Assembly: GCA_037140955.1 (NCBI GenBank)
Contig: JBAXDL010000002.1
Location: forward strand, 28,176 to 92,175
Origin: a bacterium
Lineage (GTDB): Bacteria > Patescibacteriota > Minisyncoccia > Moranbacterales > GWC2-37-73
DNA length: 64,000 bases
Direction: 5' to 3'
Shown here: positions 2,798 through 60,975 of the stretch, piece after piece
How positions within the stretch are numbered: position 1 is the first letter of the stretch
How the letters are laid out: each line of letters starts with the position of its first letter
Made by a program: the position numbers and the translations under genes
The notes under the pieces: model-generated
Seen by the model: the letters and a program-made list of their open reading frames with translations, nothing else
Told to the model about the DNA's origin: nothing
Database searches by the model: none

Positions 2798-3832
2798 ATG
2801 AAATACAAGCTATATACAACTTCCTTCAAAGCTTGGGATGCCATGATTGAGGCAATCGATGGAGCATCAAAATCAATATACCTTGAAATGTATATTTTTG
2901 AACGCGACACCACTTCAAGTCATGACTTCATTGGCAAGCTGAAACAAAAAGCCCGTGATGGTGTGCGAGTCGTGATTGTGGCTGATGCCTATGGCAGCAA
3001 GAACCTGAAAAATGAATTGGCAAAATCAATGCAAGCAGCTGGCATTGAGCTTATTTTTTTTAGTCATTGGCTGCGGCACATTCACAGAAAAATATTAATC
3101 GTCGACAAAAAAATAGCCTTTGTGGGTGGGGTCAATATTGGCAAGGAATTTGCTCACTGGGATGATTTGCAACTTCGCATGAAAGGTGGAATTGTCAAAA
3201 GAATCTTGAAATCATTTGCCTATACCTATGAAATGGCTGGCGGAAAAGATCACAAAATTTTGCACTTGAAAAATGGAAAATTCACAGCAAAATTAAAATT
3301 TTTGATCATGGAGCATTGGCCAACCAAAAACATTCATACCCTGAAAAGTCATTACATCGAAAAAATTTCTAACGCCAAAAAAAGTATTCAAATTGCAACT
3401 CCATATTTCACTCCGCCACGCTGGCTCAGCTCCCTGCTCGACAGTGCCGCCAGCAGAGGCGTCGCAATTGAAATTCTCATTCCAAGCGATGTTGATTTAA
3501 AAATAATGAACAATGTGAACCGCCACTACATGAACAAATTGAATCCCTCGGGAGTAAAGTTTTATTTGTCAAAAAAAATGAATCATGCCAAGCTTCTTAT
3601 TGTTGATCATGAAGAAGGATTGATTGGTTCGCAAAACATTGACCTTGCTTCCTTTCAATTGAACTCTGAAGTAGGGATATTTTTTAAAGAAAAAAAATTG
3701 CTAACAGAACTGGAAACAACCATCAAAAAATGGAAACAGAATTCAGAAATATTCAAACCACAAAAACACAAAATGCGATTTATTGACTATGTCATCCTGG
3801 CCCTGTCAAAAATATTATATCCAATATTATAG
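2798..3832 (+). CDS. PLD-superfamily protein with two HKD motifs (cardiolipin-synthase-like, no N-terminal TM helices)
   Basis: Two HxKxxxxD motifs: HRKILIVDKKIAFVGGVNIG and HAKLLIVDHEEGLIGSQNID. 344 aa. Confidence 0.7.
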   Translation: MKYKLYTTSFKAWDAMIEAIDGASKSIYLEMYIFERDTTSSHDFIGKLKQKARDGVRVVIVADAYGSKNLKNELAKSMQAAGIELIFFSHWLRHIHRKILIVDKKIAFVGGVNIGKEFAHWDDLQLRMKGGIVKRILKSFAYTYEMAGGKDHKILHLKNGKFTAKLKFLIMEHWPTKNIHTLKSHYIEKISNAKKSIQIATPYFTPPRWLSSLLDSAASRGVAIEILIPSDVDLKIMNNVNRHYMNKLNPSGVKFYLSKKMNHAKLLIVDHEEGLIGSQNIDLASFQLNSEVGIFFKEKKLLTELETTIKKWKQNSEIFKPQKHKMRFIDYVILALSKILYPIL

Positions 3833-4014
3833 CCACAAAAAAGAGCACCCTCCAAAGACACACAGATAATTCAGAAATACTATAGAATTTTTTTGTGAAA
3901 CCTATTTCTTATGAAGCAACAGCAAGCGAGAGCGAGCTCTTAGCGAAGCAGTTATAGTTCCCAACTGCAAGCGTGCTGAAAAAGAAATAGCGTGAACAGA
4001 AAAATATCACTACT

Positions 4015-5262
4015 ATGCCAAAAATTCAAATTACCGCCAAGGGTATCAGAGCTGCACTAAAAAAATATACACCATATCAATCACTAACAGAATACATCTG
4101 GAATGGTTTTGACGCTCAAGCATCAACCATTGAAATAAACTATATCGCCAACGAATTGGGAGGAATCGAATCAATTTCAATCAGTGATAATGGCTATGGC
4201 ATTCCACATGAAAAATTGCAAGATAAATTTGAACCAGTTTTTGAATCAAAAAAAGCCCTCGAAAACAAACTCAAAAAAAATCTCTCAGCTATTCATGGAA
4301 AAAACGGAATTGGACGATTGACCTTTTTCACTTTTGCCAGAAATTCATCATGGAAAACAACATATTCCAGCGGCCAAGAAAATTTGACCTATGAAATATA
4401 TGCCAACGCTGAAAACATCAACCTATACACCGGCATCAACGCCACACCAAAAAAGACCACCGAGCAAACCGGCACAACAACAACATTTTCTGGAATTTTT
4501 GGATTGACAGCCTCTCAACTTGAAGAAAAATTTCAAGAATATTTGCTCAAAGAATTTGCCTGGTTTTTGGCACTCAACAAAAAGCGCAATTTTTCAATTC
4601 TAATCAACGGCATTGCTATTGATTTCAAAAATATTGTTGCCGACAGTGAACAATTTGAAATATTGCATCCAGACACACAAACCTTGTTTGAAGTTTCATA
4701 CATCAGATGGGAACAAAGACTCAACAATGAACCATCACGCTATTATTACATGAACGCACAGCATCAGGAGCGCTGGAAAGAGCCAACCGCCATCAAGAAC
4801 AAGGGTGAGCAATTTTATCACAGCCTTTTTGTCGAAAGTTCATATTTTGACTCTTTTGGATTTCAAAGTTCTTCGATTCAAACTCAAGATGCTCTCATTG
4901 TTGGAACCAGGAGCGATTCGCAATTTCGATTCTTGCGAAGAAAATTGGCAAACACTTTGCGCATCAAAAGAAGACCATTTCTCAAGGGTTTTGCTGAGCA
5001 ACTCTTGCTTGAATATGAGCAAAAAAATATTCTTCCAGTTGATGCCAAAGAAAATCTAAAACAAACAATCAGGATTTTATACGAAATGCAACCAAAAATT
5101 TTCAATTCGCTGAATCTTGAACAGAAAAAAATATTAGTCGGCTTGCTTGGAGCGCTCCTTGAAAGCAACAAAAATGAAGCCATTGCAGGACTTCTTGGCG
5201 GAATCATTGAGCTTACCGCTGATGAACAAGCAGAACTTGCCCAACTATTGTTGCCGGTATAG
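4015..5262 (+). CDS. Standalone GHKL (HATPase_c-like, Bergerat fold) ATPase
   Basis: N-box-like EYIWNGFDAQAS, G1 box ISDNGYGI and G2-like HGKNGIGRLTFF near the N-terminus. No kinase dimerisation/His domain and no MutL or topoisomerase C-terminal domains recognised. Confidence 0.55.
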   Translation: MPKIQITAKGIRAALKKYTPYQSLTEYIWNGFDAQASTIEINYIANELGGIESISISDNGYGIPHEKLQDKFEPVFESKKALENKLKKNLSAIHGKNGIGRLTFFTFARNSSWKTTYSSGQENLTYEIYANAENINLYTGINATPKKTTEQTGTTTTFSGIFGLTASQLEEKFQEYLLKEFAWFLALNKKRNFSILINGIAIDFKNIVADSEQFEILHPDTQTLFEVSYIRWEQRLNNEPSRYYYMNAQHQERWKEPTAIKNKGEQFYHSLFVESSYFDSFGFQSSSIQTQDALIVGTRSDSQFRFLRRKLANTLRIKRRPFLKGFAEQLLLEYEQKNILPVDAKENLKQTIRILYEMQPKIFNSLNLEQKKILVGLLGALLESNKNEAIAGLLGGIIELTADEQAELAQLLLPV

Positions 5263-7418: not shown

Positions 7419-7546
7419 CGACCTTTGAAACCACAGAAACATTCAAAATCAAATGTTCCCATAGCTCCTCGATAGGACTTATTGCTTTTGCAAGCTGCCT
7501 ACTGTCTGCGGACACTATTTCTATTTAAATTTCCCAATACTCTAAT

Positions 7547-7885
7547 TTATTCAGCCTTCTTTTCTGCAGCAGCAGGTGCGGCAACTTCAGCTTTTGCTTC
7601 TTCCACAACTGGAGCAGCTGGTTTTTCCATCTTGACCTGACGCTTCTTTCCTTCAATCACACCTTCTTTAATGAAAAGATTGTATGCACTGTTAGAAACT
7701 TGCGCTCCTTTTGCAATCCATTCTCTAATCTTATCAGCCTTAAGAACAGCAATTTTTTGATGTGGGTCATAGCTTCCAAGAACTGCAACATGTCCACCAG
7801 TAGGGGCTGCTGTGTGCTGTTGAAGCACTACTCGAAATTGAGCTCTGTTTTTTCGTCCAACGCGTGAGAATCTAATAGTCAACAT
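7547..7885 (-). CDS. rpsP: 30S ribosomal protein S16, with Ala/Glu-rich C-terminal extension
   Basis: MLTIRFSRVGRKNRAQFRVVLQQHTAAPTGGHVAVLGSYDP... Confidence 0.85.
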   Translation of the reverse strand: MLTIRFSRVGRKNRAQFRVVLQQHTAAPTGGHVAVLGSYDPHQKIAVLKADKIREWIAKGAQVSNSAYNLFIKEGVIEGKKRQVKMEKPAAPVVEEAKAEVAAPAAAEKKAE

Positions 7886-8429: not shown

Positions 8430-8597
8430 TTCTAATCCAGCAATAATGCTAGTTTAAAAACAAATTATTTATTATTTATTTATCATTATGCATGTTGACT
8501 CATGCATGTCATCATTATACACCATTATTAAAAGGTTTGACAATAGGCAATTTGATTTTTGTCAATGGTCATGGTGTGTGCATTTGATTTTTAAAAT

Positions 8598-9515
8598 TTA
8601 CTTGACGTTTATTGGCGCAATATCAACTTTTTTCAGAACTGTGCGAGCAAAACAAAAATTTCCAGCATCATGTTTCCATTCATTTGTGTATTGAAAATAT
8701 TGTGGAGCAACATCATTCAAACTTGAACGCAAAAATGTTGCGCATAATTTGTATGATTTTTCATCTTCTATTTTATATTCAATATCTTTCAAGTTTCCAG
8801 TACCATATGAAAATTTTGTTGTCTGCAAATCATCCAATTTTGCTGGCAATTTTTCAGACTCACCAAAATAGCTTTGGATTGAATTGTCGATTGACTGAAT
8901 GGTGTCGATTGACTGCTGGTCAAGCTTCTTTTGCCTTGCCACATTTGGAGAGTCAATAATGAAAAAAGCCGCAATAAATGTCACACCAAGCACTAGCATG
9001 CAAACAATCATGGCATTTTTATTGATATTTGAAACATCCTCAGTTCTACGCATATCCCAGAAGTAATATCCAAAAATTCCGCCAGCAATCAAAAGAATCA
9101 CCAAAACTTTCAACAAAAAGCTGGAAGTAAAATCACCACCAAGAAAATTGACCACCAAGGTGATGAGATCGCCAATGATTGTTGCTGATGCAAAAAACAA
9201 AACAATATAGGTCAACCATTTTCTAATTTTTGACTCCAATGAAATCCTTCCAGCATTAATTCTTGCAACGATTATCCTTGAAACAAAAAGGAAGATGGGT
9301 CCAGCAATGAAGAGTGCTGCAATACCAAATTTCACAGACTCCTGAGAAAATGACTGATACAAAAGTCCCTCAGTGTCAGTCACAAATTTATCAACAAAAC
9401 CAAACAAAATAGAACCTTCACCAATAGAAACAAATGCCAGCGACAAAAAAGTCACCAAATAAAGAAAGAAATCCTGCGCGCTACTGTCTTGTTTTACTGA
9501 AATTTCATTTTCCAT
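8598..9515 (-). CDS. Hypothetical polytopic membrane protein with soluble C-terminal domain
   Basis: Four or more predicted TM helices in the first 180 aa, then a hydrophilic roughly 120-aa tail. Family not recognised. Confidence 0.4.
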   Translation of the reverse strand: MENEISVKQDSSAQDFFLYLVTFLSLAFVSIGEGSILFGFVDKFVTDTEGLLYQSFSQESVKFGIAALFIAGPIFLFVSRIIVARINAGRISLESKIRKWLTYIVLFFASATIIGDLITLVVNFLGGDFTSSFLLKVLVILLIAGGIFGYYFWDMRRTEDVSNINKNAMIVCMLVLGVTFIAAFFIIDSPNVARQKKLDQQSIDTIQSIDNSIQSYFGESEKLPAKLDDLQTTKFSYGTGNLKDIEYKIEDEKSYKLCATFLRSSLNDVAPQYFQYTNEWKHDAGNFCFARTVLKKVDIAPINVK

Positions 9516-51605: not shown

Positions 51606-51820
51606 CCAATATCAACCATTTTTATTTTAGTAGATTTCCCACCAACAATCTTGATCAAACTTTTGGCAACTTTGAAGTGTTTTGACAAAATATCTATCAA
51701 TGCGTCATTAGCTTGACCATCAACAGGCGGAGCAGTTAATTTTATTCTGTATTCACCTTCTGAAGTTTTCACAACTTCATTTTTTGATGATCGAGGTGAA
51801 ACTTTAATATAAATTCTCAT
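51602..51820 (-). CDS. DUF167 (YggU/UPF0235) family protein
   Basis: VSPRSSKNEV...LKIKLTAPPVDGQANDALIDILSKHFKVAKSLIKIVGGKSTKIK. Confidence 0.7.
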   Translation of the reverse strand: MRIYIKVSPRSSKNEVVKTSEGEYRIKLTAPPVDGQANDALIDILSKHFKVAKSLIKIVGGKSTKIKMVDIG

Positions 51821-52740
51821 TAGACTTGATTTTGTGCACTAGCATTTGCAGCATTCTTCCTATCGATATTAGTTTTAATGCGAACAAACATGTTTATTAG
51901 CATCAGCAGTATCAAGAAAATATTAGCAACCACGAAGATATTTCTCACAATAATATTTTGCATATCAGTCCCAAGAAGGTATGCGTGCGAAATTACAGCA
52001 CCATACAAAAAGATGTTCAAAAAATGCAAAGCTCTCCACAATTTTGCAGAAATATATTTTCGAACATAAGATGATGCAGTCAGAATAACCATCAAATAAA
52101 ATCCAATAATTCCAAGCGCCACCAAGGTTGATTTGTATTGCGTAGCAAATGGAACAAAAACATCAATCAAACTGAAATGAATAAATTTATCAAACATCAA
52201 AAACACACCATGAATAAGTGCAAACAAAGTCGCTTGAAAAGCAATCCAGCAATGGCCTTGCATGGCATAAAGTGGAGCAAAAAATTTACGAAGAAATCCT
52301 ACGCGAATTGTTAGGCCAAGAAAAATAGAGAGGTATAGCAAGGTAAATCCAACCAAGCCACTAGCTCTTGAAGCATACCAAGCCCAGGGGGTTTCATTTG
52401 AAGATGAGGCTTGATTTTCTCCTACTGGAGGAAGACCAGGAATTGAAGCTGAATCAAGCGGATCAGTTTCTGCCAAAACTTCACTACCATCATAATATCC
52501 ATCGCCATCAGTATCATGATTCTTAGGATCAGTCCCATATATTTGCACCTCAGCTTGATCAGTCAAACCATCCAAGTCTGAATCTAATGCTGGGCCTCCT
52601 TCATAGCTAACTTTTGATTGTGTGCCAATAGGTGCATCCTGCGCCTTGGTGTAAGCAAAAAACATCAAGCCAGAAACAGCAATAAAGCATGATGCTAGCA
52701 CGATTTTACCCTTATTGCTGATCTTATTTGTCGTGTTCAT
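51820..52740 (-). CDS. Ferric-reductase-like transmembrane heme-binding domain protein (MsrQ/YedZ-like) with N-terminal secreted Ca-binding repeats
   Basis: Signal/TM anchor. DSDLDGLTDQ and DTDGDGYYDGSEV thrombospondin-type-3-like Asp motifs. Membrane domain with paired His, IHGVFLM and ALHFLNIFLYGAVISHAY (H-x13-H), as in YedZ. Confidence 0.5.
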   Translation of the reverse strand: MNTTNKISNKGKIVLASCFIAVSGLMFFAYTKAQDAPIGTQSKVSYEGGPALDSDLDGLTDQAEVQIYGTDPKNHDTDGDGYYDGSEVLAETDPLDSASIPGLPPVGENQASSSNETPWAWYASRASGLVGFTLLYLSIFLGLTIRVGFLRKFFAPLYAMQGHCWIAFQATLFALIHGVFLMFDKFIHFSLIDVFVPFATQYKSTLVALGIIGFYLMVILTASSYVRKYISAKLWRALHFLNIFLYGAVISHAYLLGTDMQNIIVRNIFVVANIFLILLMLINMFVRIKTNIDRKNAANASAQNQV

Positions 52741-52756
52741 TTTTTTAAAATTAAGA

Positions 52757-53749
52757 TTAATATAAATGTTCCTTAGCTTTAGGTGAGATCCAGGCGGCTC
52801 CTCGATAATTCAAAATCACTACTGCCAGGTCATGCTCCCTTGCGTATAGCATACCACCTTTTGCACCCATTAGAAAGATTGTTTTTGCCCAAACATCAGC
52901 CGAGGTTGTATCATCCGCAATAACAGAAACTGATTTTAAGTCAAAAGAAAAATTTTCAGGATTTTTTGGATCAACAATATGATGCACTCTTTTTCCATCA
53001 ATTTCCCAGCGTCTTCTGCCAATTCCAGAAGTTGCTATCCCCTTCTTATCAAGAGCAAAAATCATTTTTTTTTCATCAATACCTTCAACTGCAATTGTCC
53101 AGCGCCGCTGCTCCTCATCTAATCCTTGCATAAACATGTCACCACCAGAATCAACCAAAAAATTATTCCAACCTTTTGAAATCAAAAATTCAGCAACTCT
53201 ATCAGTGATATATCCTTTTGCTATTCCAGAAAAATCCATCTTAACACCAAAAAAAACTTTTCCATCTTCAATTCTCAAATCATCTACCAAGGGACCCTGC
53301 AATAGTGTTGATTTTTCATCAATATCTGACCTGAACAATCTGCTTCCATCACTAAAATCATCAAAATAACCAACCTTTTCCAAAACATCGAGTATTCTTG
53401 GATCAAAAATCCCATCAGTATCACTATTGTATTTCAGTGACATTTTAACAATTTCGAGCAAATGGCTAGATGCAAGATTAAAAACACCTAATTTCAAATT
53501 TAATTTTGACAGCTCGCTTTCTAAATCAAAACGACTAAAGATCTTAGTAAAATCATCATACACTTTTTCTACCAAAGAAAAATCTTCTCTCATCAACTTT
53601 TCTTCCTCAGCGGTGGTAACCACAACTTGAATATCAATATCAGTTCCCAACTTTCTAAATTGAAAACGTGCTATTTTGGGAAATTTTTCAGAATTTTCAG
53701 CGTTAGCTTGCATATTCAAAGGTGTCAACAATTCCATTTCCATTTTCAT
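52757..53749 (-). CDS. apbE: FAD:protein FMN transferase (ApbE family)
   Basis: FSGIAKGYITDRVAEFL (the GIAKGY motif), ...FDPRIL..., ...SGIGRRRWE... Confidence 0.75.
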   Translation of the reverse strand: MKMEMELLTPLNMQANAENSEKFPKIARFQFRKLGTDIDIQVVVTTAEEEKLMREDFSLVEKVYDDFTKIFSRFDLESELSKLNLKLGVFNLASSHLLEIVKMSLKYNSDTDGIFDPRILDVLEKVGYFDDFSDGSRLFRSDIDEKSTLLQGPLVDDLRIEDGKVFFGVKMDFSGIAKGYITDRVAEFLISKGWNNFLVDSGGDMFMQGLDEEQRRWTIAVEGIDEKKMIFALDKKGIATSGIGRRRWEIDGKRVHHIVDPKNPENFSFDLKSVSVIADDTTSADVWAKTIFLMGAKGGMLYAREHDLAVVILNYRGAAWISPKAKEHLY

Positions 53750-54107
53750 CTTTTACGATATAAATATCAGCGACATCAGGATATTGATCATCCACATCAG
53801 CAATCCCATCAAGATCGCGATCAGACAATGAGATAGTTTCTGTTTGATATTCCGTCACTATTTGCGCAGGAGTCACCACAACTGTCTGTTTGTATGTTGC
53901 TGGTTTTGGAGTGCTTGTTGTGGCCTCTTGAACTGTTGCCGCTGGAGTACTAACGGTTGCTGGCTTATAGTCATCATCCTCACCTTCACCATCGCGTTCA
54001 TATTTACCATCTTCTTTTTCAGCATGCACAAAATAAGAACCAACAAACAAGCCACCAAAAATCAAAGAGATTACTGCAAGAAATAAGAATAAATTTTTTT
54101 TGAACAT
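53703..54107 (-). CDS. Hypothetical anchored/secreted protein with Thr/Pro/Ala linker and acidic Ca-binding-like C-terminus
   Basis: TM anchor LFLFLAVISLIFGGLFVG, linker PATVSTPAATVQEATTSTPKPAT, then DRDLDGIADVDDQYPDVAD. Its last 47 bp overlap the apbE start. Confidence 0.35.
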   Translation of the reverse strand: MFKKNLFLFLAVISLIFGGLFVGSYFVHAEKEDGKYERDGEGEDDDYKPATVSTPAATVQEATTSTPKPATYKQTVVVTPAQIVTEYQTETISLSDRDLDGIADVDDQYPDVADIYIVKDENGNGIVDTFEYAS

Positions 54108-54131: not shown

Positions 54132-54548
54132 TTAAGATTTCTTTGTAGTGGCCTTGGCTGGAGCTGCTGCCTTTGGAGCAGTATAGGAAGCTGTTGTGCT
54201 TGATGTTGGCGCTGTTGTTGTTACCGTTTTTGTTACAGCTGGAATTGTTTTTGTCACAGGAACAGATTGTTGTTTTGAAACAGTCCCAGTATTATTTGCA
54301 ATACTGTTTAATTTTGCTTCCTTGTCAGCCTTAACTCTTTGCTGTGCATCATAGGCATAGTCAGCAGCTGATTTGTAGCTCTGAGATGTTGGAGCAATCT
54401 CAGCTTCCGCCGCAGCCGTTGTTACTTTTTCAAGCTCTTTTTCGGTACTTTTTTGCTTGATAAGCATCACTCCAGTTGCAACAACTGAAATATTCATAAT
54501 CAAAAACATTATTTTAACACCATGTTCTTTTAATTTTTCTAAAATCAT
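54132..54548 (-). CDS. Hypothetical N-terminally anchored low-complexity (Thr/Ala-rich) protein
   Basis: TM anchor, then TVTKTIPAVTKTVTTTAPTSSTTASYTAPKAAAPAKATTKKS. Confidence 0.3.
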   Translation of the reverse strand: MILEKLKEHGVKIMFLIMNISVVATGVMLIKQKSTEKELEKVTTAAAEAEIAPTSQSYKSAADYAYDAQQRVKADKEAKLNSIANNTGTVSKQQSVPVTKTIPAVTKTVTTTAPTSSTTASYTAPKAAAPAKATTKKS

Positions 54549-54577
54549 TTTTTTGTAAATTAAATAAATTATTAATA

Positions 54578-54799
54578 TTATGAAACTTTTGTGGTTGACG
54601 ATGTGTATGGTTGCTTGCTTTGGGTAGTCGCTGAGGTCGCCTTTGTGGGGGGTGCATTTTTATTATTAACTTCTGCGGTACTTTGAGCTGTCTTATTTTT
54701 CTGCGAAATATTTTTAATCAAAAATACACCACCAACTATAATTAAAATATTCACCAAGAAAAATAAGATTTTTTTATAATGCTTTTGAAACAATTGCAT
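54578..54799 (-). CDS. Hypothetical small N-terminally anchored low-complexity protein
   Basis: TM anchor ILFFLVNILIIVGGVFLI, then a Thr/Ser/Ala-rich tail. Confidence 0.3.
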   Translation of the reverse strand: MQLFQKHYKKILFFLVNILIIVGGVFLIKNISQKNKTAQSTAEVNNKNAPPTKATSATTQSKQPYTSSTTKVS

Positions 54800-54901
54800 G
54801 CTTAATTATTTTTGAATAAATTACTTTATCGCCCAGGCACATTCAAATGCCGAATAATAACTACTACGCAGTAATTTATATTTTTCTTTACAGCAAGATT
54901 A

Positions 54902-56401
54902 TTATGATTTTTTAGTGGTACCCTTAGATGAACTCTTATATCCAGCCTGTTTTCTTGTTATATCAGCCGTTATTTCATATCTCATCAGTTTACTTCTGCG
55001 ACCAGTTTTCAAGTCAACAGCATACCATTTATACTTTCCGTAGTTCTTTTTTGCGATATAATAAACACTAAATGCTCCTTTTTTATCAGTCTTAACTGAG
55101 ATTGGTGGATAATAGCTCAAATTAGAACGAGAAAAATACAAATTAACCATTGAATTTTTGGAAAATCGCTTGCCTGTTTGGGTTATTTCACCACCTCTTT
55201 TAACTTTACTATAACTTTGATTTATCTGACGCTTTGGCTCTTCAACCTCATCTTCATCATCTTTTTTTTCAACAGATGCTGAAACCGGCGTTGAAATTGG
55301 AATTGCAGCTGCAGGAGCCTGAATTGAAAAGGCAGCAGAAAGTGCAGATTCATTGGCAAAATCATCATAAGCTGAAACACGATATTGATATGCGGTTGAA
55401 GGATTTATTGTTAAATCAGAATAACTAAGACTTGTCGTGGTTGCAATCTCAATATCGTTTCTATAGATCTTATATCCAGCAACTGCTACAATGTCTGATG
55501 ATGCTGCCCATGAAAGATCGGCTTGATTTGCGGAAACAACATTAACACTCAAACTTCCGGGCACTGTTGGTGCAATCAAGTCTCCGCCAGTATTTAGAAT
55601 TGAAAAAGATATAATATAATCATCAAGATTCACATTCAATGAATCATCTTGGCAACGCACATAATATGAATATGTTGACCCATTAGAAAGCCCAGTAACT
55701 GTCGTTGAATGAATAGTTCTTGCGCCAGTGTTTGCAAATTGTGTCATTGAAGCATAAGGAGTATCTACAGATGTTGAATAGGCACAAGTGGCATTTTCAT
55801 TAGTCATGAGTGAGATATTAGAACTAGTTGTGCCTGCTGAACGCGCCGAAGTTGGAGCTTTGTTCAAGCGAATTGGAGGATTTTCAACTGTTACGGAAAT
55901 TGCAGCAGACGCCTTTGCGCCATAATCGACAGTACTCGCATCACATGACAATGAATGAACACCATCAGCAACACCTGTAGTGTCCCATGTTATGCCATAT
56001 GGAAAAACAGTGTCCTGCTCGCCAAGATTAAAGCCATCTAATTTAAACTGAACCCCAGAAATTGGGACATCAATCGGAAGCGGGCTAGTTGCATCAGCAG
56101 TAACAGAAACAGACGCACCAGAAACTGTTGAGCCATCCACCGGAGCAGTAATACTACGCGATACAGTCATAGCACTAACGCTGTGCACGAAAATGTCATT
56201 TCTTTGATATTGATCTTCTTTAATTGCTAATAGTCCCTTAAGTTTAGAATCACGAAAAGAATCACCTTGCCTGACAAGTGCGAAGAATTTTTTGGAAAAT
56301 TTTACAATAGAAATAAATGAGTCAATATAAAACTGCACACAATAAACCAGAAGGATTGAAAAAGTGATGCTTATTATTTTTCTTTTTTTTATTTTTATCA
56401 T
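54902..56401 (-). CDS. Cell-surface protein with bacterial Ig-like and fibronectin type III domains (paralog 1)
   Basis: N-terminal anchor identical to paralog 2. Ig-like domain ...SGVQFKLDGFNLGEQDTVFPYGITWDTTGVADGVHSL.... FN3 ...APTVPGSLSVNVVSANQADLSWAAS...GYKIYRN...YQYRVSAYD... Confidence 0.55.
   Translation of the reverse strand: MIKIKKRKIISITFSILLVYCVQFYIDSFISIVKFSKKFFALVRQGDSFRDSKLKGLLAIKEDQYQRNDIFVHSVSAMTVSRSITAPVDGSTVSGASVSVTADATSPLPIDVPISGVQFKLDGFNLGEQDTVFPYGITWDTTGVADGVHSLSCDASTVDYGAKASAAISVTVENPPIRLNKAPTSARSAGTTSSNISLMTNENATCAYSTSVDTPYASMTQFANTGARTIHSTTVTGLSNGSTYSYYVRCQDDSLNVNLDDYIISFSILNTGGDLIAPTVPGSLSVNVVSANQADLSWAASSDIVAVAGYKIYRNDIEIATTTSLSYSDLTINPSTAYQYRVSAYDDFANESALSAAFSIQAPAAAIPISTPVSASVEKKDDEDEVEEPKRQINQSYSKVKRGGEITQTGKRFSKNSMVNLYFSRSNLSYYPPISVKTDKKGAFSVYYIAKKNYGKYKWYAVDLKTGRRSKLMRYEITADITRKQAGYKSSSKGTTKKS
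56261..56398. repeat. 138-bp direct repeat (copy 1) covering the 5' end of paralog 1
   Basis: Identical to 57191-57328 apart from 1-2 mismatches. Encodes ...KIKKRKIISITFSILLVYCVQFYIDSFISIVKFSKKFFALVRQGDSF. Confidence 0.85.
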
Positions 56402-56431
56402 GTGAAATAAAAACTCAAATATTTTAAATAT

Positions 56432-57334
56432 TTATAAAACCATTAGGCTGCTTGGTGCACTTGGTGCTGTCACATCAGTCAAAACAGAAAAATTTATAGC
56501 GGTATAATCACTAGCATTTTGATTTCCAACCAAATCCTGGCAACGCACATAATATGGATAAGAATTTCCTCCAATAAGTCCAGTGATCGTAGCAGAATGA
56601 GCTGTGCCACCAATTGCTGCAAATGCGTTTGTCATTGAGGCATATGGAACGCCAGCAGAAGTTGAATATTTGCAAGTTGCACTTTCATTGGTTGTAAGTG
56701 TTATATTTGTTTGTGTTGTTCCTATGGCAAGGGCCGTGGATGGACCTCCAAGCAAACGAACCGGGGCTGTATTATCAACCGTTACTGAAGTTACAGGAGA
56801 TACCTGTCCAGTGCCATATCTTGTGCTGCTATTGTATGTAATAATTGTCAATGAGTGAACCCCGTCTGTAGTGGTGGTTGTATCCCAAGGAAAAATAGCC
56901 GTGGCATCATTTCCCACAAGTGTCAACATAGAATTTGCCACGGTGGCTTTTGCGCCAAGATTAGCTCCATCTAATCGGAATTGAATACCATTAACAATAG
57001 CTGGTTCAGCTGGCTGACTTATAGCTGTAGCTGTCAAATTGAATGTCCCATGAATTACAATACCAGCAGTTGGTGCTATTATGGAATCAGAAATTGTTGC
57101 AGCCGAAACAGCATGCACAAAAATATTCTCTTTTTGGTATTGATCATTTTTAAATTCTAATAATCCTTTTTTCTTAGCAACATCAAAAGAATCACCTTGC
57201 CTGACAAGTGCAAAGAATTTTTTGGAAAATTTTACAATAGAAATAAATGAGTCAATATAAAACTGCACACAATAAACCAGAAGGATTGAAAAAGTGATGC
57301 TTATTATTTTTCTTTTTTTTATTTTTAAGTGCAT
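56432..57334 (-). CDS. Cell-surface Ig-like-domain protein (paralog 2, shorter)
   Basis: Same N-terminal 45 aa. Ig-like domain ...NGIQFRLDGANLGAKATVANSML...FPWDTTTTTDGVHSL... Confidence 0.5.
   Translation of the reverse strand: MHLKIKKRKIISITFSILLVYCVQFYIDSFISIVKFSKKFFALVRQGDSFDVAKKKGLLEFKNDQYQKENIFVHAVSAATISDSIIAPTAGIVIHGTFNLTATAISQPAEPAIVNGIQFRLDGANLGAKATVANSMLTLVGNDATAIFPWDTTTTTDGVHSLTIITYNSSTRYGTGQVSPVTSVTVDNTAPVRLLGGPSTALAIGTTQTNITLTTNESATCKYSTSAGVPYASMTNAFAAIGGTAHSATITGLIGGNSYPYYVRCQDLVGNQNASDYTAINFSVLTDVTAPSAPSSLMVL
57191..57328. repeat. 138-bp direct repeat (copy 2) covering the 5' end of paralog 2
   Basis: See copy 1. Confidence 0.85.
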
Positions 57335-57407
57335 GAAAAAAATTTACTTTTTAACCTACTTTTAAATATATTATATCACAAAATCAACAATATCACACAC
57401 GACATAT

Positions 57408-58109
57408 TTAGTTATTTTCCCTAATTCCACATATTTTAAAGTTTTTTTCTATTTTTTCCTTTATCTTGGCTAAATCTATTTTTTTGTTTAGTGACACTGT
57501 GCGCAAATTTTGATCAAGAATTACTCCGTCTCTATATTCTTGCAAATAATATGCATCAGCACCATTGATCCATTTGGCAATTTTTTTAAAATCTTCTTCA
57601 TTGTGAATCCCAGGAACAACAGTGGTGCGAAACTCGTAGGCCAAGTCACTTTCCATGATCAATTTCACACTTAACTTTATTTTTTCAATATCAACATTAA
57701 GTCCAACAGTCTTACTGTAATTTTCTGGAGAATTTTTAATATCCATGGCAATAAAATCCACCAATTTTTCATCAATAACCTTTTTCAAAACTTCTGGCCG
57801 GCTGCCATTAGAATCAAGCTTAACTTTAAAACCAAGATCTTTGATTTTTTTGATAAATGGAATAATATCACTTTGAATAGTTGGCTCTCCCCCAGTAATA
57901 CAAACTCCTTCCAATTTTCCAATACGTTTTTTCAAATGCTCAAAAAATTCTTTTTCCAATTCATTTGGATACGGAAATTGAGACTGAAGGACAAGTTCTG
58001 GATTATGACAAAAGCCACAACGAAAACTGCAACCAACAGTGAAAACCGTGGTTGCAATTGTTCCTGGAAAGTCTATTAGGGTTAGTTTTTGATAACCACC
58101 AATGCGCAT
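57408..58109 (-). CDS. nrdG: Anaerobic ribonucleoside-triphosphate reductase activating protein (radical SAM)
   Basis: CSFRCGFCHN (CxxxCxxC), ...GVCITGGEP... Confidence 0.85.
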   Translation of the reverse strand: MRIGGYQKLTLIDFPGTIATTVFTVGCSFRCGFCHNPELVLQSQFPYPNELEKEFFEHLKKRIGKLEGVCITGGEPTIQSDIIPFIKKIKDLGFKVKLDSNGSRPEVLKKVIDEKLVDFIAMDIKNSPENYSKTVGLNVDIEKIKLSVKLIMESDLAYEFRTTVVPGIHNEEDFKKIAKWINGADAYYLQEYRDGVILDQNLRTVSLNKKIDLAKIKEKIEKNFKICGIRENN

Positions 58110-58279: not shown

Positions 58280-58546
58280 TTAGCAAGAAACACAGGCGCC
58301 TTGCTCAACCATATATTCTGCGCGGTCTCCAAACTCTGCCTGCTTGCCCTTGTTCCATTGAGAAATTGGGCGAATATACCCAACCACACGAGAATAAACT
58401 TCTGTTGCTTGAAAATTTCGAAGCACTGAATCTTTTTGATGACAAGACTTGCATTTAGCAAAGGTTTCTTTGCCGACAGAATATGGCATATATTCTTCAT
58501 TGTGCTCTAGGCTTTTTTGACAATCATGACATGTGTGTTTTTTCAT
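58280..58546 (-). CDS. Standalone NrdD-C-terminal-like mini-protein: Zn-ribbon + glycyl-radical motif (candidate spare-part for NrdD)
   Basis: CHDC...CKSC, then TEVYSRVVGYIRPISQWNKGKQAEFGDRAEY. 29 of 31 residues match the NrdD C-terminus TEVYSRVVGYIRPVEQWNKGKQAEFGDRKEY. The DNA is also similar (58330-58420 versus 58835-58925). Confidence 0.7.
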   Translation of the reverse strand: MKKHTCHDCQKSLEHNEEYMPYSVGKETFAKCKSCHQKDSVLRNFQATEVYSRVVGYIRPISQWNKGKQAEFGDRAEYMVEQGACVSC

Positions 58547-58779: not shown

Positions 58780-60975
58780 TTATTTTTTCTCCGCACAAGC
58801 AACTTCGCATTTTCCATTTTCATATTCCTTGCGATCTCCAAATTCAGCCTGCTTTCCTTTGTTCCATTGTTCAACGGGGCGAATATACCCAACCACGCGA
58901 GAATAAACTTCGGTTTTTTGTTCAATAACACACTTTGGACAAACTGGTTGTTCGCCGTTGATATATCCATGCACCGGACAAATACTGAAAGTTGGAGAAA
59001 GCGTGAAATATGGCAAAGAATAATTTTCCGCAATCTTTCTGACCAGATTTTTCACCATTTCAATGTCCCAAATTCTTTCCCCCAAGAATCCATGAAGCAC
59101 CGTTCCTCCTGTATATTTTGTTTGCATTTTTTCCTGCAAATCTAAAGCCTCAAAAATATCTTCTGTGAAGTGAACTGGCAATTGTGAAGAATTGGTATAA
59201 TATGGCTCTGCACCTTTTGTTCGAACCGCCACATTGTTTGCAAAAATAATTTCTGGATATTTTTCACGATCCTTTCTGGCCAAGCGATATGATGTTCCTT
59301 CAGCTGGAGTTGCTTCAAGATTGTACATGCTGCCAGTTTCCTCTTGAAATTTGAGCATTTTCTCTCGCATATGCACCAAAATTTCCTCTCCCAAATCCTG
59401 TCCTTCTTTGGTGGTAATATCCTTTCCAATTAAATTTACCAAAGCCTCATTTAATCCAACCAAGCCAATGGTTGAAAAATGATTTGACCAATAAGACCCC
59501 TGACGCATTTTGATCGCATCTAAATAAAATTTGGTGTATGGATATAATCCTTTTTCTGTTAGACTTTCTACTAATTTTCTTTTTGTATCAAGACTTTCCT
59601 TGGCCACATCCATCAATGAATCAAGTTGCACAAAAAATTCTTTTTTGTTTTTTGCGGCATAACCAATACGTGGCATGTTTATTGTTACCACCCCAATTGA
59701 GCCAGTTAGTGGATTTGCGCCAAAGAGTCCTCCACCTCGTTTGCGCAATTCTCGATTGTCCAAACGAAGACGACAGCACATAGAACGAGCATCATCAGGA
59801 TCCATGTCTGAGTTAACAAAGTTTGCAAAATATGGAATGCCATACTTTGCTGTCATTTCCCAAACAGCATCAAAGCGCTTGTCACTCCAATCAAAATCTT
59901 TGGCAATGTTGTATGTCGGAATTGGGAAAGTGAAGATTCGCCCGCTAGCATCACCTTCAGTCATCACCTCAGCAAAGGCGCGATTGATCATGTTCATTTC
60001 ATCTTGAAATTCACCATAAGTTTCTTTTTGTGGAACCCCACCAATGATGACAGCTTCTTTTGCAAGCATTCCTGGTGCGGTCATGTCCATAGTGATGTTT
60101 GAAAATGGTGTTTGAAATCCCACGCGCGTTGAAACATTCATATTGAAAACAAAAGATTGAATTTCTTGTTTAACTTGCTCATAGGTCAATTTGTCATAGC
60201 GCACAAATGGAGCAAGAAGTGTGTCAAAATTTGAAAAAGCTTGCGCTCCAGCAACCTCACCCTGCAAAGTATAAATGAAATTTACCATTTGCCCAAGAAT
60301 TGAACCAAGATGTTTTGCTGGCTTGCAGGCAACCTTTCCAGGCACACCAGTAAATCCCCTGCGAAGCAAATCTTGCAAATCCCAACCACAACAATAGGCA
60401 GCAACCAGCTGCAAATCATGAATGTGAATATCACCACTCTCATTGGCAGATCGAATTTCCTTAGAATAAACACGATTCATCCAATATTTAGAACTAACGA
60501 TTGAAGCGATGTAATTGTTAAGGCCTTGCAAAGAGTATGCCATGTTTGCGTTCTCTTTTACTTGCCAATCTAATTCTTGAATATATTTATCCACTAAACT
60601 TACAGCCTCATCCAGAGAGTGTTCTGTTTCGCGAATTTTTCGATGCTGTTCTCGATACAAAATATATGCCTTGGCAGTTTCCTCATAATCCAAAACCATC
60701 AGCACACGCTCAACCAAATCTTGCAATTGTTCAATTGCTGGAATTTCACCCTTTTTAAAATTTTTGTTCAGCAATTGCACAACTTTGTCAGCAACTTTTT
60801 TGGCATCATCCTTTGTTCCTTCTTTTGTTATTAAAAATGCTCGCTCAACCGCAACTGCAATCTTTTTCTGGTCAAAAGGCACAACCACTCCACTTCTCTT
60901 TACAATCTTTTTCACCAAATTCACAACTTTTTTCTTTTCAATCTTTTTTTCTTCCACCTTCTTTTGATTTTTCAT
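58780..60975 (-). CDS. nrdD: Anaerobic ribonucleoside-triphosphate reductase (class III) with N-terminal ATP-cone
   Basis: ATP-cone VVKRSGVVVPFDQKKIAVAVERAF. C-terminal glycyl-radical motif SRVVGYIRP preceded by a Cys cluster CPVHG...CPKC. 731 aa. Confidence 0.9.
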   Translation of the reverse strand: MKNQKKVEEKKIEKKKVVNLVKKIVKRSGVVVPFDQKKIAVAVERAFLITKEGTKDDAKKVADKVVQLLNKNFKKGEIPAIEQLQDLVERVLMVLDYEETAKAYILYREQHRKIRETEHSLDEAVSLVDKYIQELDWQVKENANMAYSLQGLNNYIASIVSSKYWMNRVYSKEIRSANESGDIHIHDLQLVAAYCCGWDLQDLLRRGFTGVPGKVACKPAKHLGSILGQMVNFIYTLQGEVAGAQAFSNFDTLLAPFVRYDKLTYEQVKQEIQSFVFNMNVSTRVGFQTPFSNITMDMTAPGMLAKEAVIIGGVPQKETYGEFQDEMNMINRAFAEVMTEGDASGRIFTFPIPTYNIAKDFDWSDKRFDAVWEMTAKYGIPYFANFVNSDMDPDDARSMCCRLRLDNRELRKRGGGLFGANPLTGSIGVVTINMPRIGYAAKNKKEFFVQLDSLMDVAKESLDTKRKLVESLTEKGLYPYTKFYLDAIKMRQGSYWSNHFSTIGLVGLNEALVNLIGKDITTKEGQDLGEEILVHMREKMLKFQEETGSMYNLEATPAEGTSYRLARKDREKYPEIIFANNVAVRTKGAEPYYTNSSQLPVHFTEDIFEALDLQEKMQTKYTGGTVLHGFLGERIWDIEMVKNLVRKIAENYSLPYFTLSPTFSICPVHGYINGEQPVCPKCVIEQKTEVYSRVVGYIRPVEQWNKGKQAEFGDRKEYENGKCEVACAEKK

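Follow-up and report, generated by a model that had tools for sequence, protein, structure and literature searches.

Recurrent gene conversion keeps duplicated bacterial genes alike, as in the case of tufA and tufB. In Mycoplasma, the surface genes of the vsp, vsa and vlp families are clustered and share a near-identical 5′ end, encoding a membrane-targeting N-terminus, ahead of divergent bodies. These families have many members, are equipped with a site-specific recombinase and inversions or with a hypermutable promoter tract, and are documented to be heterogeneous within populations. For the adhesin paralogues babA/babB, sabA/sabB and homA/homB of Helicobacter pylori, segment-limited concerted evolution has been established; it proceeds by intragenomic, homologous and non-reciprocal recombination, probably RecA-dependent, with a terminal segment that is alike within a strain and remaining segments that track allelic lineages (PMC3960876, citing Pride & Blaser, 2002). 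Prokaryotic paralogues that have long evolved in concert have also been catalogued (PMC6053082). Here we analyse two adjacent genes, A and B, that encode putative membrane-anchored surface proteins and share a 143-nucleotide (nt) block at their 5′ ends. They lie in a 64,000-nt stretch of a Moranbacteria metagenome-assembled genome (MAG; contig JBAXDL010000002.1, positions 28,176 to 92,175), hereafter the window. The EF-G that it encodes shares 97-98% identity with proteins assigned to Candidatus Moranbacteria. The pair is probably best understood as old tandem paralogues whose anchor-encoding 5′ ends underwent recent gene conversion of an ordinary kind. Patescibacteria (the candidate phyla radiation, CPR), Moranbacteria included, are thought to spend their lives attached to other cells, which makes their surface proteins likely points of contact. 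To our knowledge, almost nothing is known about how these surface proteins evolve, and the literature yielded no paper linking them to gene conversion. The conversion process itself is already known and the locus opens no new mechanism; it offers a clean, quantified case in which an anchor evolves in concert within genomes, the ectodomains diverge and the pair comes and goes.

The closest analogues of the locus appear to be the H. pylori bab, sab and hom adhesin paralogues (including hopQ with sab). In both cases paralogous surface genes have one terminal segment that is more alike within a strain or genome, the remainder following orthology. However, the concerted segment in H. pylori is the 3′ end, which encodes the β-barrel, whereas in A and B it is the 5′ membrane anchor; the H. 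pylori loci are dispersed, whereas A and B are adjacent direct repeats in a CPR MAG; and H. pylori chimeras alter receptor binding, with expression switching shown experimentally. With the Mycoplasma families the pair shares a near-identical 5′ end before divergent bodies, but it has two members in direct orientation, its A8 run may do no more than encode Lys-Lys and no recombinase was found among the genes called within 10 kb on either side of it in the window. As for tufA/tufB and the catalogued paralogues (PMC6053082), likeness within a genome extends over long periods and tract boundaries are sharp at the edges of homology; those cases concern whole genes of the core machinery, whereas here some 50 codons of an accessory, patchily distributed surface pair are involved. 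In domain content and predicted fold the proteins match 'beads-on-a-string' surface proteins built of Big_7 and fn3 domains, from which they differ in having an anchor module of about 85 amino acids, found in six clusters only, and a C-terminal β domain, neither of which corresponds to a Pfam family.

Both genes are open reading frames (ORFs) on the minus strand. Gene A (56432-57334) encodes the short paralogue of 300 amino acids (NCBI MEI7890649.1) and is followed, after a 30-bp spacer (56402-56431), by gene B (54902-56401), which encodes the full-length paralogue of 499 amino acids (NCBI MEI7890648.1). The shared block occupies 57185-57327 in A and 56255-56397 in B, both copies on the minus strand in direct orientation, and runs from codon 3 to codon 49 of both genes, encoding the presumably cytoplasmic string KIKKRK, a transmembrane helix and the start of a membrane-proximal helix. 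Its 143 nt contain a single mismatch (57212, T in A; 56282, C in B), which is synonymous in a Phe codon; the original prediction, which put the block at 138 bp with one or two mismatches, was thus essentially right. Beyond the block identity falls to 29% in register over the 73 nt upstream and 55% over the next 150 nt downstream. This likeness is real and far beyond chance. An 81-nt core of the block has exactly two copies in the window, where none is expected, and the longest identical run between A and B is 115 nt, as against 32 nt or less in 20,000 shuffles of the aligned sites. Likewise, 39 consecutive third codon positions are identical, as against 25 or fewer in the shuffles, and not one of the 20,000 matched the observed identity runs. 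A tblastn search of the window with the N-terminal 81 amino acids returned A and B only, with no third copy. The A8 run occupies codons 4-7 of both genes; it is A5-A7 in homologues and is shorter than typical slippage tracts.

What the block signifies becomes apparent when the pair is set against its relatives in other genomes, designated L002 to L012. Seven genes were aligned and compared segment by segment, with synonymous (dS) and non-synonymous (dN) divergence calculated by the Nei-Gojobori method. In the ectodomain (the Big_7 and X domains described below), gene A of the window is 73% identical at the amino acid level to gene A of L004, and gene B is 66-67% identical to gene B of L004, whereas A and B within one genome are 40-53% identical. 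The ectodomains therefore pair by orthology, which means that the duplication predates the split between the organisms of the window and L004. The anchor behaves in the opposite way: A and B of the same genome are 98% identical in the window, 77% in L004 and 79% in L007, as against 56-73% between genomes. The same holds at synonymous sites. Between A and B of the window, dS is 0.034 across the anchor (codons 3-50), and the remainder of the gene gives 1.49; the corresponding values are 0.77 and 1.80 in L004 and 0.87 and 1.71 in L007, and anchor dS between genomes ranges from 0.93 to saturated. Third positions of A and B in the window are 98% identical in the block and 44-51% identical elsewhere; between genomes anchor third positions are 33-60% identical, with no conservation at the nucleotide level. 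Since anchor dS is low within genomes, the anchor would have been homogenised within each of them, most recently in that of the window, and because the identity of the block extends to synonymous sites, constraint on the protein alone cannot explain it. The pattern is that expected of recurrent, segment-limited gene conversion, or concerted evolution, of the anchor-encoding 5′ end. The proposed link between the identical 5′ ends and gene conversion is thus borne out, by the contrast in dS within the window and by homogenisation of the anchor in two other genomes.

Neither gene appears to be decaying or diversifying. Outside the anchor, dN/dS is 0.17 between the A genes of the window and L004, 0.18 between their B genes and 0.32 between A and B, and gene-wide values of 0.17-0.33 give no sign of diversifying selection. 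Both genes are, on these ratios, under purifying selection. The truncated gene A would be a maintained gene rather than a decaying fragment, given its dN/dS of 0.17 and the fact that four A-type genes share one end point.

The A protein is homologous to B along its whole length (54% amino acid identity over 295 residues) and has the same order of domains, namely a Lys-rich N-terminus, a transmembrane anchor, a juxtamembrane helix, a Big_7 domain and an FN3-like domain termed X. In B the same anchor, Big_7 and X are followed by an FN3 domain, an acidic/Lys linker, a conserved C-terminal β domain and a Lys/Ser tail. The bodies of the two proteins accordingly look like old and diverged homologues, and not like the different immunoglobulin (Ig)-like domains into which the genes had been said to diverge. 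The companion claim, that the genes are tandem paralogues for anchored surface proteins of the Ig/FN3 type, agrees with both domain and structure searches. Pfam Big_7 (PF17957, cut-off 24.1 bits) scores 43.9 bits in B and 24.1 bits, exactly at the cut-off, in A; fn3 (PF00041, cut-off 25) scores 26.0 bits in B, and the X domain of B gives a weak match to the FN3-like Pur_ac_phosph_N. Pfam has no family for the first 81 residues or for the C-terminal domain, with the sole exception, for the latter, of a sub-threshold MG2 match in the homologue P0124. An AlphaFold2 model of B of modest confidence (mean predicted local distance difference test score 63) has a long helix at residues 6-44, a second at 49-64 and four β-sandwich domains (about 81-172, 185-268, 282-361 and 398-478); residues 367-396 form a disordered acidic/Lys linker. 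A Foldseek search of the PDB with this model retrieved only multi-domain Ig/FN3 ectodomains (for example contactins, RPTPs, titin and fibronectin), and the predicted domains are of the Ig/FN3 'beads-on-a-string' kind.

At the N-terminus, KIKKRK is followed by about 25 hydrophobic residues, and no cleavage or lipobox motif is conserved across the homologues. We infer that the proteins have an uncleaved type-II signal anchor, N-terminus in and C-terminus out, bearing an Ig-like stalk that would be exposed at the cell surface. A lipoprotein signal was rejected because the Cys of the string 'LVYC' is not conserved in L004, and a pilin-like signal because a motif of the G-F-T-L-I-E type is absent. 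The last residues of the A protein, APSAPSSLMVL, align with APTVPGSLSVNVV, where the fn3 match of B begins, and the terminus falls eight residues into the FN3 domain. From this alignment, A would be the same protein cut within its first FN3 strand.

The family to which the pair belongs is small. Each protein is a singleton when clustered at 90% identity, and the full-length relatives of B are P0002 (59%), P0003 (52%) and P0004 (49%), other matches sharing Ig/FN3 domains only. The anchor is the best conserved protein segment, with 21 invariant columns in 88, and a profile of these N-terminal 88 residues, used in an exhaustive hidden Markov model search of 1.84 billion cluster representatives, matched six proteins only: A, B (for its cluster), the A-type proteins of L007 and L004, P0123 (a 206-amino acid A-type protein of a GC-rich organism) and P0124 (a 581-amino acid B-type protein). 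None of the six is a third carrier from this genome; the further paralogues with the same 5′ cassette that the original prediction looked for thus come down to the two in the window. A search of the GTDB species-representative genomes with an alignment of B found no relative. Neither a 43-nt core of the cassette in a collection of genome contigs nor a 31-nt core in one of metagenome contigs had a match, but both collections lack even the source contig and so have no bearing on variation in the population.

Where related loci do occur, the arrangement varies. In L004/L005/L006, which come from another organism partly in the same sample, nrdG is followed by A′ (396 amino acids), a 27-bp spacer and B′ (495 amino acids). 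L007 has a RimK-like gene, A″ (196 amino acids), a short spacer (30 bp if measured to the TTG start as called, about 51 bp if to an MKIKIKK start), B″ and rubrerythrin. In L002/L003 the context is like that of L007 but with just a single B-type gene, in L008 an A-type gene precedes that of an unrelated, LamG-like anchored protein, and L009 and L012 have B-type genes with ApbE directly after. A-type proteins end at one position in the window, L004, L007 and L008, in the form P-x-x-L-x-V-x-stop (APSSLMVL, APSSLSVL, SPNSLNVM and GPVNLSVQ, each followed by a stop). One may speculate that this conserved tail, the first β-strand of an FN3 domain, docks on the FN3 or Ig domain of another protein by strand addition. 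Ahead of the common end point, the A-type proteins contain Big_7 only (L007, L008), Big_7-X (the window) or Big_7-X-X (L004), and the X repeats of L004 gene A′ (1237-1479 and 1534-1776; 243 nt, 88% identical, with a period of 297 nt) form an internal tandem duplication. In L012 (JGI Ga0194043_1001076) the tandem members share a perfect direct repeat of 629 bp (2874-3502 and 3976-4604) that begins 1 nt before the ATG and stops exactly where Big_7 ends; the sequences flanking the two copies are not alike. The upstream L012 gene encodes the anchor, Big_7, another Ig-like domain and a dockerin, the downstream gene the anchor, Big_7, X, two FN3 domains and the C-terminal domain. Domain shuffling, which was to be sought by comparing strains, is therefore evident between genomes, the family swapping modules that include one to three Ig domains in A-type proteins, the L004 repeat and the L012 dockerin tail. 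A gene for a large serine recombinase lies at 14-1624 of L012, 1.2 kb upstream of the pair.

Collectively these comparisons lead us to favour the following history. A and B would have arisen long ago, when a gene for a type-II membrane-anchored Ig-like surface protein was partially duplicated in tandem. The upstream copy, A, would then have lost everything from the first FN3 strand onwards, persisting as a shorter anchored protein, whereas the downstream copy, B, would have kept FN3 and the conserved distal C-terminal domain. The ectodomains would have diverged until their synonymous sites were saturated, and recently the first 143 nt of one gene would have been overwritten by the other through non-reciprocal homologous recombination, that is, gene conversion, presumably of the RecA type. 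In related genomes the anchor segment would have been homogenised independently and earlier, so that it evolves in concert as the rest diverges. The anchor probably remains a substrate for recombination because, as the best conserved segment of the protein, it keeps enough similarity, and a partner shared by both anchors, or pairing of A with B in the membrane, may add selection for identity. There is no sign that a switch between A and B is programmed, and conversion of this sort is ordinary for paralogous surface genes.

Four observations weigh against this history, or at least against its simplest form. The species is represented by one genome, which leaves the direction and date of the conversion unfixed, and no unconverted strain has been seen. 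The block begins almost at the start codon with no clear homology upstream, so that selection, or the boundary of the original duplication, is needed to explain where it starts. The 629-bp repeat of L012, which may reflect a recent fusion of modules, repeated conversion or a fault in assembly, looks more like a recent duplication or fusion of modules than conversion between old paralogues, which implies that more than one process acts in the family. Finally, gene A of L007 is not clearly orthologous to that of the window (35% identity in Big_7), and a single ancestral truncation is thus not proven.

The best placed of the alternatives accepts conversion and adds a reason for it, namely that the anchors are kept identical by selection, either for pairing of A and B through their transmembrane and juxtamembrane helices or for binding to a common membrane partner. 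That the anchor is the most conserved segment of the family accords with this, as does the recurrence of homogenisation in three to four genomes, and concertedly evolving prokaryotic paralogues are often found in one complex, according to the catalogue (PMC6053082). However, no interaction data or partner gene is known for the anchors of A and B, and those of L004 and L007 have drifted to the levels of identity given above without loss of either gene. Moreover, higher conservation by itself makes the anchor a preferred substrate for recombination. We consider selection for identity conceivable, though rather doubtful.

A second alternative places the anchor-encoding 5′ module at the centre of a family-wide process, in which it serves as a handle by which one anchor, with or without the first Ig domain, is re-fused to varied ectodomains and genes are gained or lost. 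The grounds for it are the 143-bp block of the window, the 629-bp block of L012 with its Ig-dockerin tail, the range of one to three Ig domains and the loss of the pair from a sister genome (see below). If this were true, the locus would represent a selected, RecA-based system for surface diversification in episymbiotic CPR bacteria and not incidental conversion; we think it unlikely.

Closely related, and more unlikely still, is the suggestion that the 5′ cassette is a recombination handle for programmed or high-frequency switching, in which ectodomains are swapped or deleted behind one expression site in the manner of Mycoplasma vsp/vsa or Neisseria pilE/pilS. The genes do encode surface proteins, are in tandem and share an identical 5′ end. 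The modular variation among genomes, above all the dockerin tail behind a perfect 629-bp 5′ end in L012, the presence or absence of the pair between sister genomes, the A8 run inside the cassette and the serine recombinase of L012 could all be enlisted in its favour. However, programmed systems of the vsp/vsa/vlp, pilE/pilS and vlsE types have three or more cassettes sharing a conserved end, whereas the window has two copies and the N-terminus occurs in just the six clusters described above; they also have a dedicated recombinase or inverted sites, whereas these repeats are direct and no recombinase or reverse transcriptase is called within the 10-kb flanks. A crossover between direct repeats can only remove or duplicate a 930-bp unit, and the product of the deletion is a gene identical to B. 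Each gene has its own start codon, both are under purifying selection with the low gene-wide dN/dS already noted, and the A run, which is 5-8 nt long across genomes, may serve only to encode Lys-Lys. All contigs on record that carry A or B have a single arrangement with the same neighbours. The target of a diversity-generating retroelement, with template and variable repeats that differ mostly at adenines, a 3′ position in the target gene and a reverse transcriptase close by, was likewise rejected, since the copies differ by one C/T change only, the repeat is at the 5′ ends and reverse transcriptase is absent from the same set of called genes. With two direct copies, no recombinase called and one arrangement on record, the earlier suggestion of recombinational switching, a hallmark of variable surface antigens, is not supported as far as these data reach; a lack of further cassette copies was among the outcomes that the original prediction itself named as refuting it. 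An identical 5′ end on tandem surface genes is, alone, no evidence of antigenic switching.

Conservation of the block as a cis-acting nucleotide element (an RNA leader, a site of translational control or a protein-binding site) would agree with near-perfect identity that includes synonymous sites and with a block starting close to the start codon. However, anchor third positions vary freely between genomes, Rfam contains no family for the block and finds nothing in the window, and the predicted RNA fold of the block is no better than those of shuffled sequences (z = -0.98), so that an element of this kind is very improbable. Least credible of all are a recent duplication followed by very fast, positively selected divergence of the ectodomain, which would make the block the part that has not yet diverged and would suit surface proteins, which often evolve fast, and high identity at the 5′ end with low identity thereafter, but which is excluded by the saturated dS outside the block (1.49, with dN/dS of 0.32 there and not above 1) and by the separate L004 orthologues of A and B; and, equally, a chimeric or collapsed repeat, which the short-read source of the MAG and its MEGAHIT k141 contig name might suggest, but against which stand exact runs (115 and 27 nt) shorter than k = 141, through which the assembler reads, the presence of the same proteins on contigs of 147 and 180 kb recorded at NCBI, JGI and ENA, and the recurrence of the tandem layout, again with similar 5′ ends, in samples of independent origin (L004/L005/L006, L007 and L012).

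The regulatory strings around the pair have a bearing on the extent of the duplication in the conversion history that we prefer. An extended -10 box (TGATATAAT) at 57370-57378 on the minus strand, 36 nt upstream of the start codon of gene A, is the probable promoter of the pair. The motif TGNTATAAT occurs 11 times in the window, this site included, mostly on the coding (minus) strand; 2.65 occurrences are expected, an excess of about four-fold, and none of 100 shuffles reaches 11, which suggests that -35-independent promoters are common in this organism. The same extended -10 motif precedes A-type or single genes in L004, L007 and L002. A standard sigma-70 scan yielded no excess of sites over shuffles and overlooked the extended -10 boxes. 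Gene A has its stop codon (56432-56434) inside the string TATAAAT (56430-56436), and the A genes of L004 and L007 have theirs inside TATAGAT and TGTGATATAAT respectively, a few tens of bases before the start of B. TATAAAT is possibly a degenerate -10 box for B. This would suggest that the original unit of duplication extended from the -10 box as far as the first FN3 strand, and that B still has a promoter; with in-register identity upstream of the two genes only 29%, the TATAAT-like strings permit just a weak inference that the promoters are homologous.

The history of the locus can be followed in L091, a sister Moranbacteria genome whose NrdG is 83% identical to that of the window (L004 NrdG, 78%). 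L091 is syntenic gene for gene, with FtsZ, NrdR, NrdD, a small NrdD-like ORF, NrdG, three small membrane proteins, ApbE, a ferric-reductase-like protein, ComEC and NDK, but lacks A and B, only 155 bp (8484-8637) separating nrdG from the next gene (the window counterpart is 54800-57407). Because the pair occupies this site in L004 too, a more distant genome, it was most simply lost in the L091 lineage; whichever the case, it is an accessory locus, present in some genomes and missing from others. The 155-bp stretch contains a terminator-like hairpin and a GATATAAT box. The insertion or deletion of the pair sits between a promoter box and the leader of the downstream genes for small membrane proteins. 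A single copy of a G/C-rich leader motif, CTGCGTA(G/A)TA(G/C), is present in the window (54862-54870, minus strand; 0.28 expected), just downstream of gene B and upstream of a 73-amino acid gene. It recurs at 3464-3473 of L007, right after the -10-like box that precedes B″, where 21 of 27 nt agree, and at 8569-8578 of L091, between nrdG and a 70-amino acid gene. The motif may be a shared element of 5′ untranslated regions or a trace of insertion of the pair.

After gene B, at 54132-54799 and 53703-54107 on the minus strand, come three small single-pass membrane proteins of 73, 138 and 134 amino acids with low-complexity tails rich in Thr, Ser, Ala and Lys; they are conserved in L091, and the 138-amino acid protein is also found in L004. 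ApbE, an FMN transferase, is encoded beside or close to B-type genes in three divergent contexts (51820-53749 on the minus strand of the window, 2154-3092 in L009 and 5872-6819 in L012); in the window, the next gene encodes a ferric-reductase-like membrane protein that contains bacterial TSP3 repeats. We rejected the possibility that this ApbE flavinylates B, since orthologues do not keep the SGAS string of the Big_7 domain; neither A nor B shows a conserved flavinylation motif. L091 has ApbE although it is without the pair, and the link of ApbE with A and B is probably only positional.

One further feature, unrelated to the pair, may be the more interesting of the two. Between nrdD (58780-60975) and nrdG (57408-58109) lies an ORF of 88 amino acids (58280-58546, minus strand) that corresponds to a stand-alone NrdD C-terminus. 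It carries a zinc ribbon of two CxxC pairs together with the glycyl-radical motif RVVGYIRP, and 34 of 44 residues (77%) are identical to the C-terminus of the intact NrdD next to it. It looks like a 'spare part' of the GrcA/YfiD type that would serve the anaerobic ribonucleotide reductase. According to a 2026 review, formate lyases are the only enzymes for which spare-part proteins are known to date, with others an open question (PMC13450708). Homologues of 96 and 102 amino acids with 81-82% identity occur in at least two other assemblies, and L091 has an NrdD-like ORF at the same position (7463-7753). Compared with the L091 copy, dN is 0.14 and dS is saturated, which indicates that the ORF is under purifying selection.

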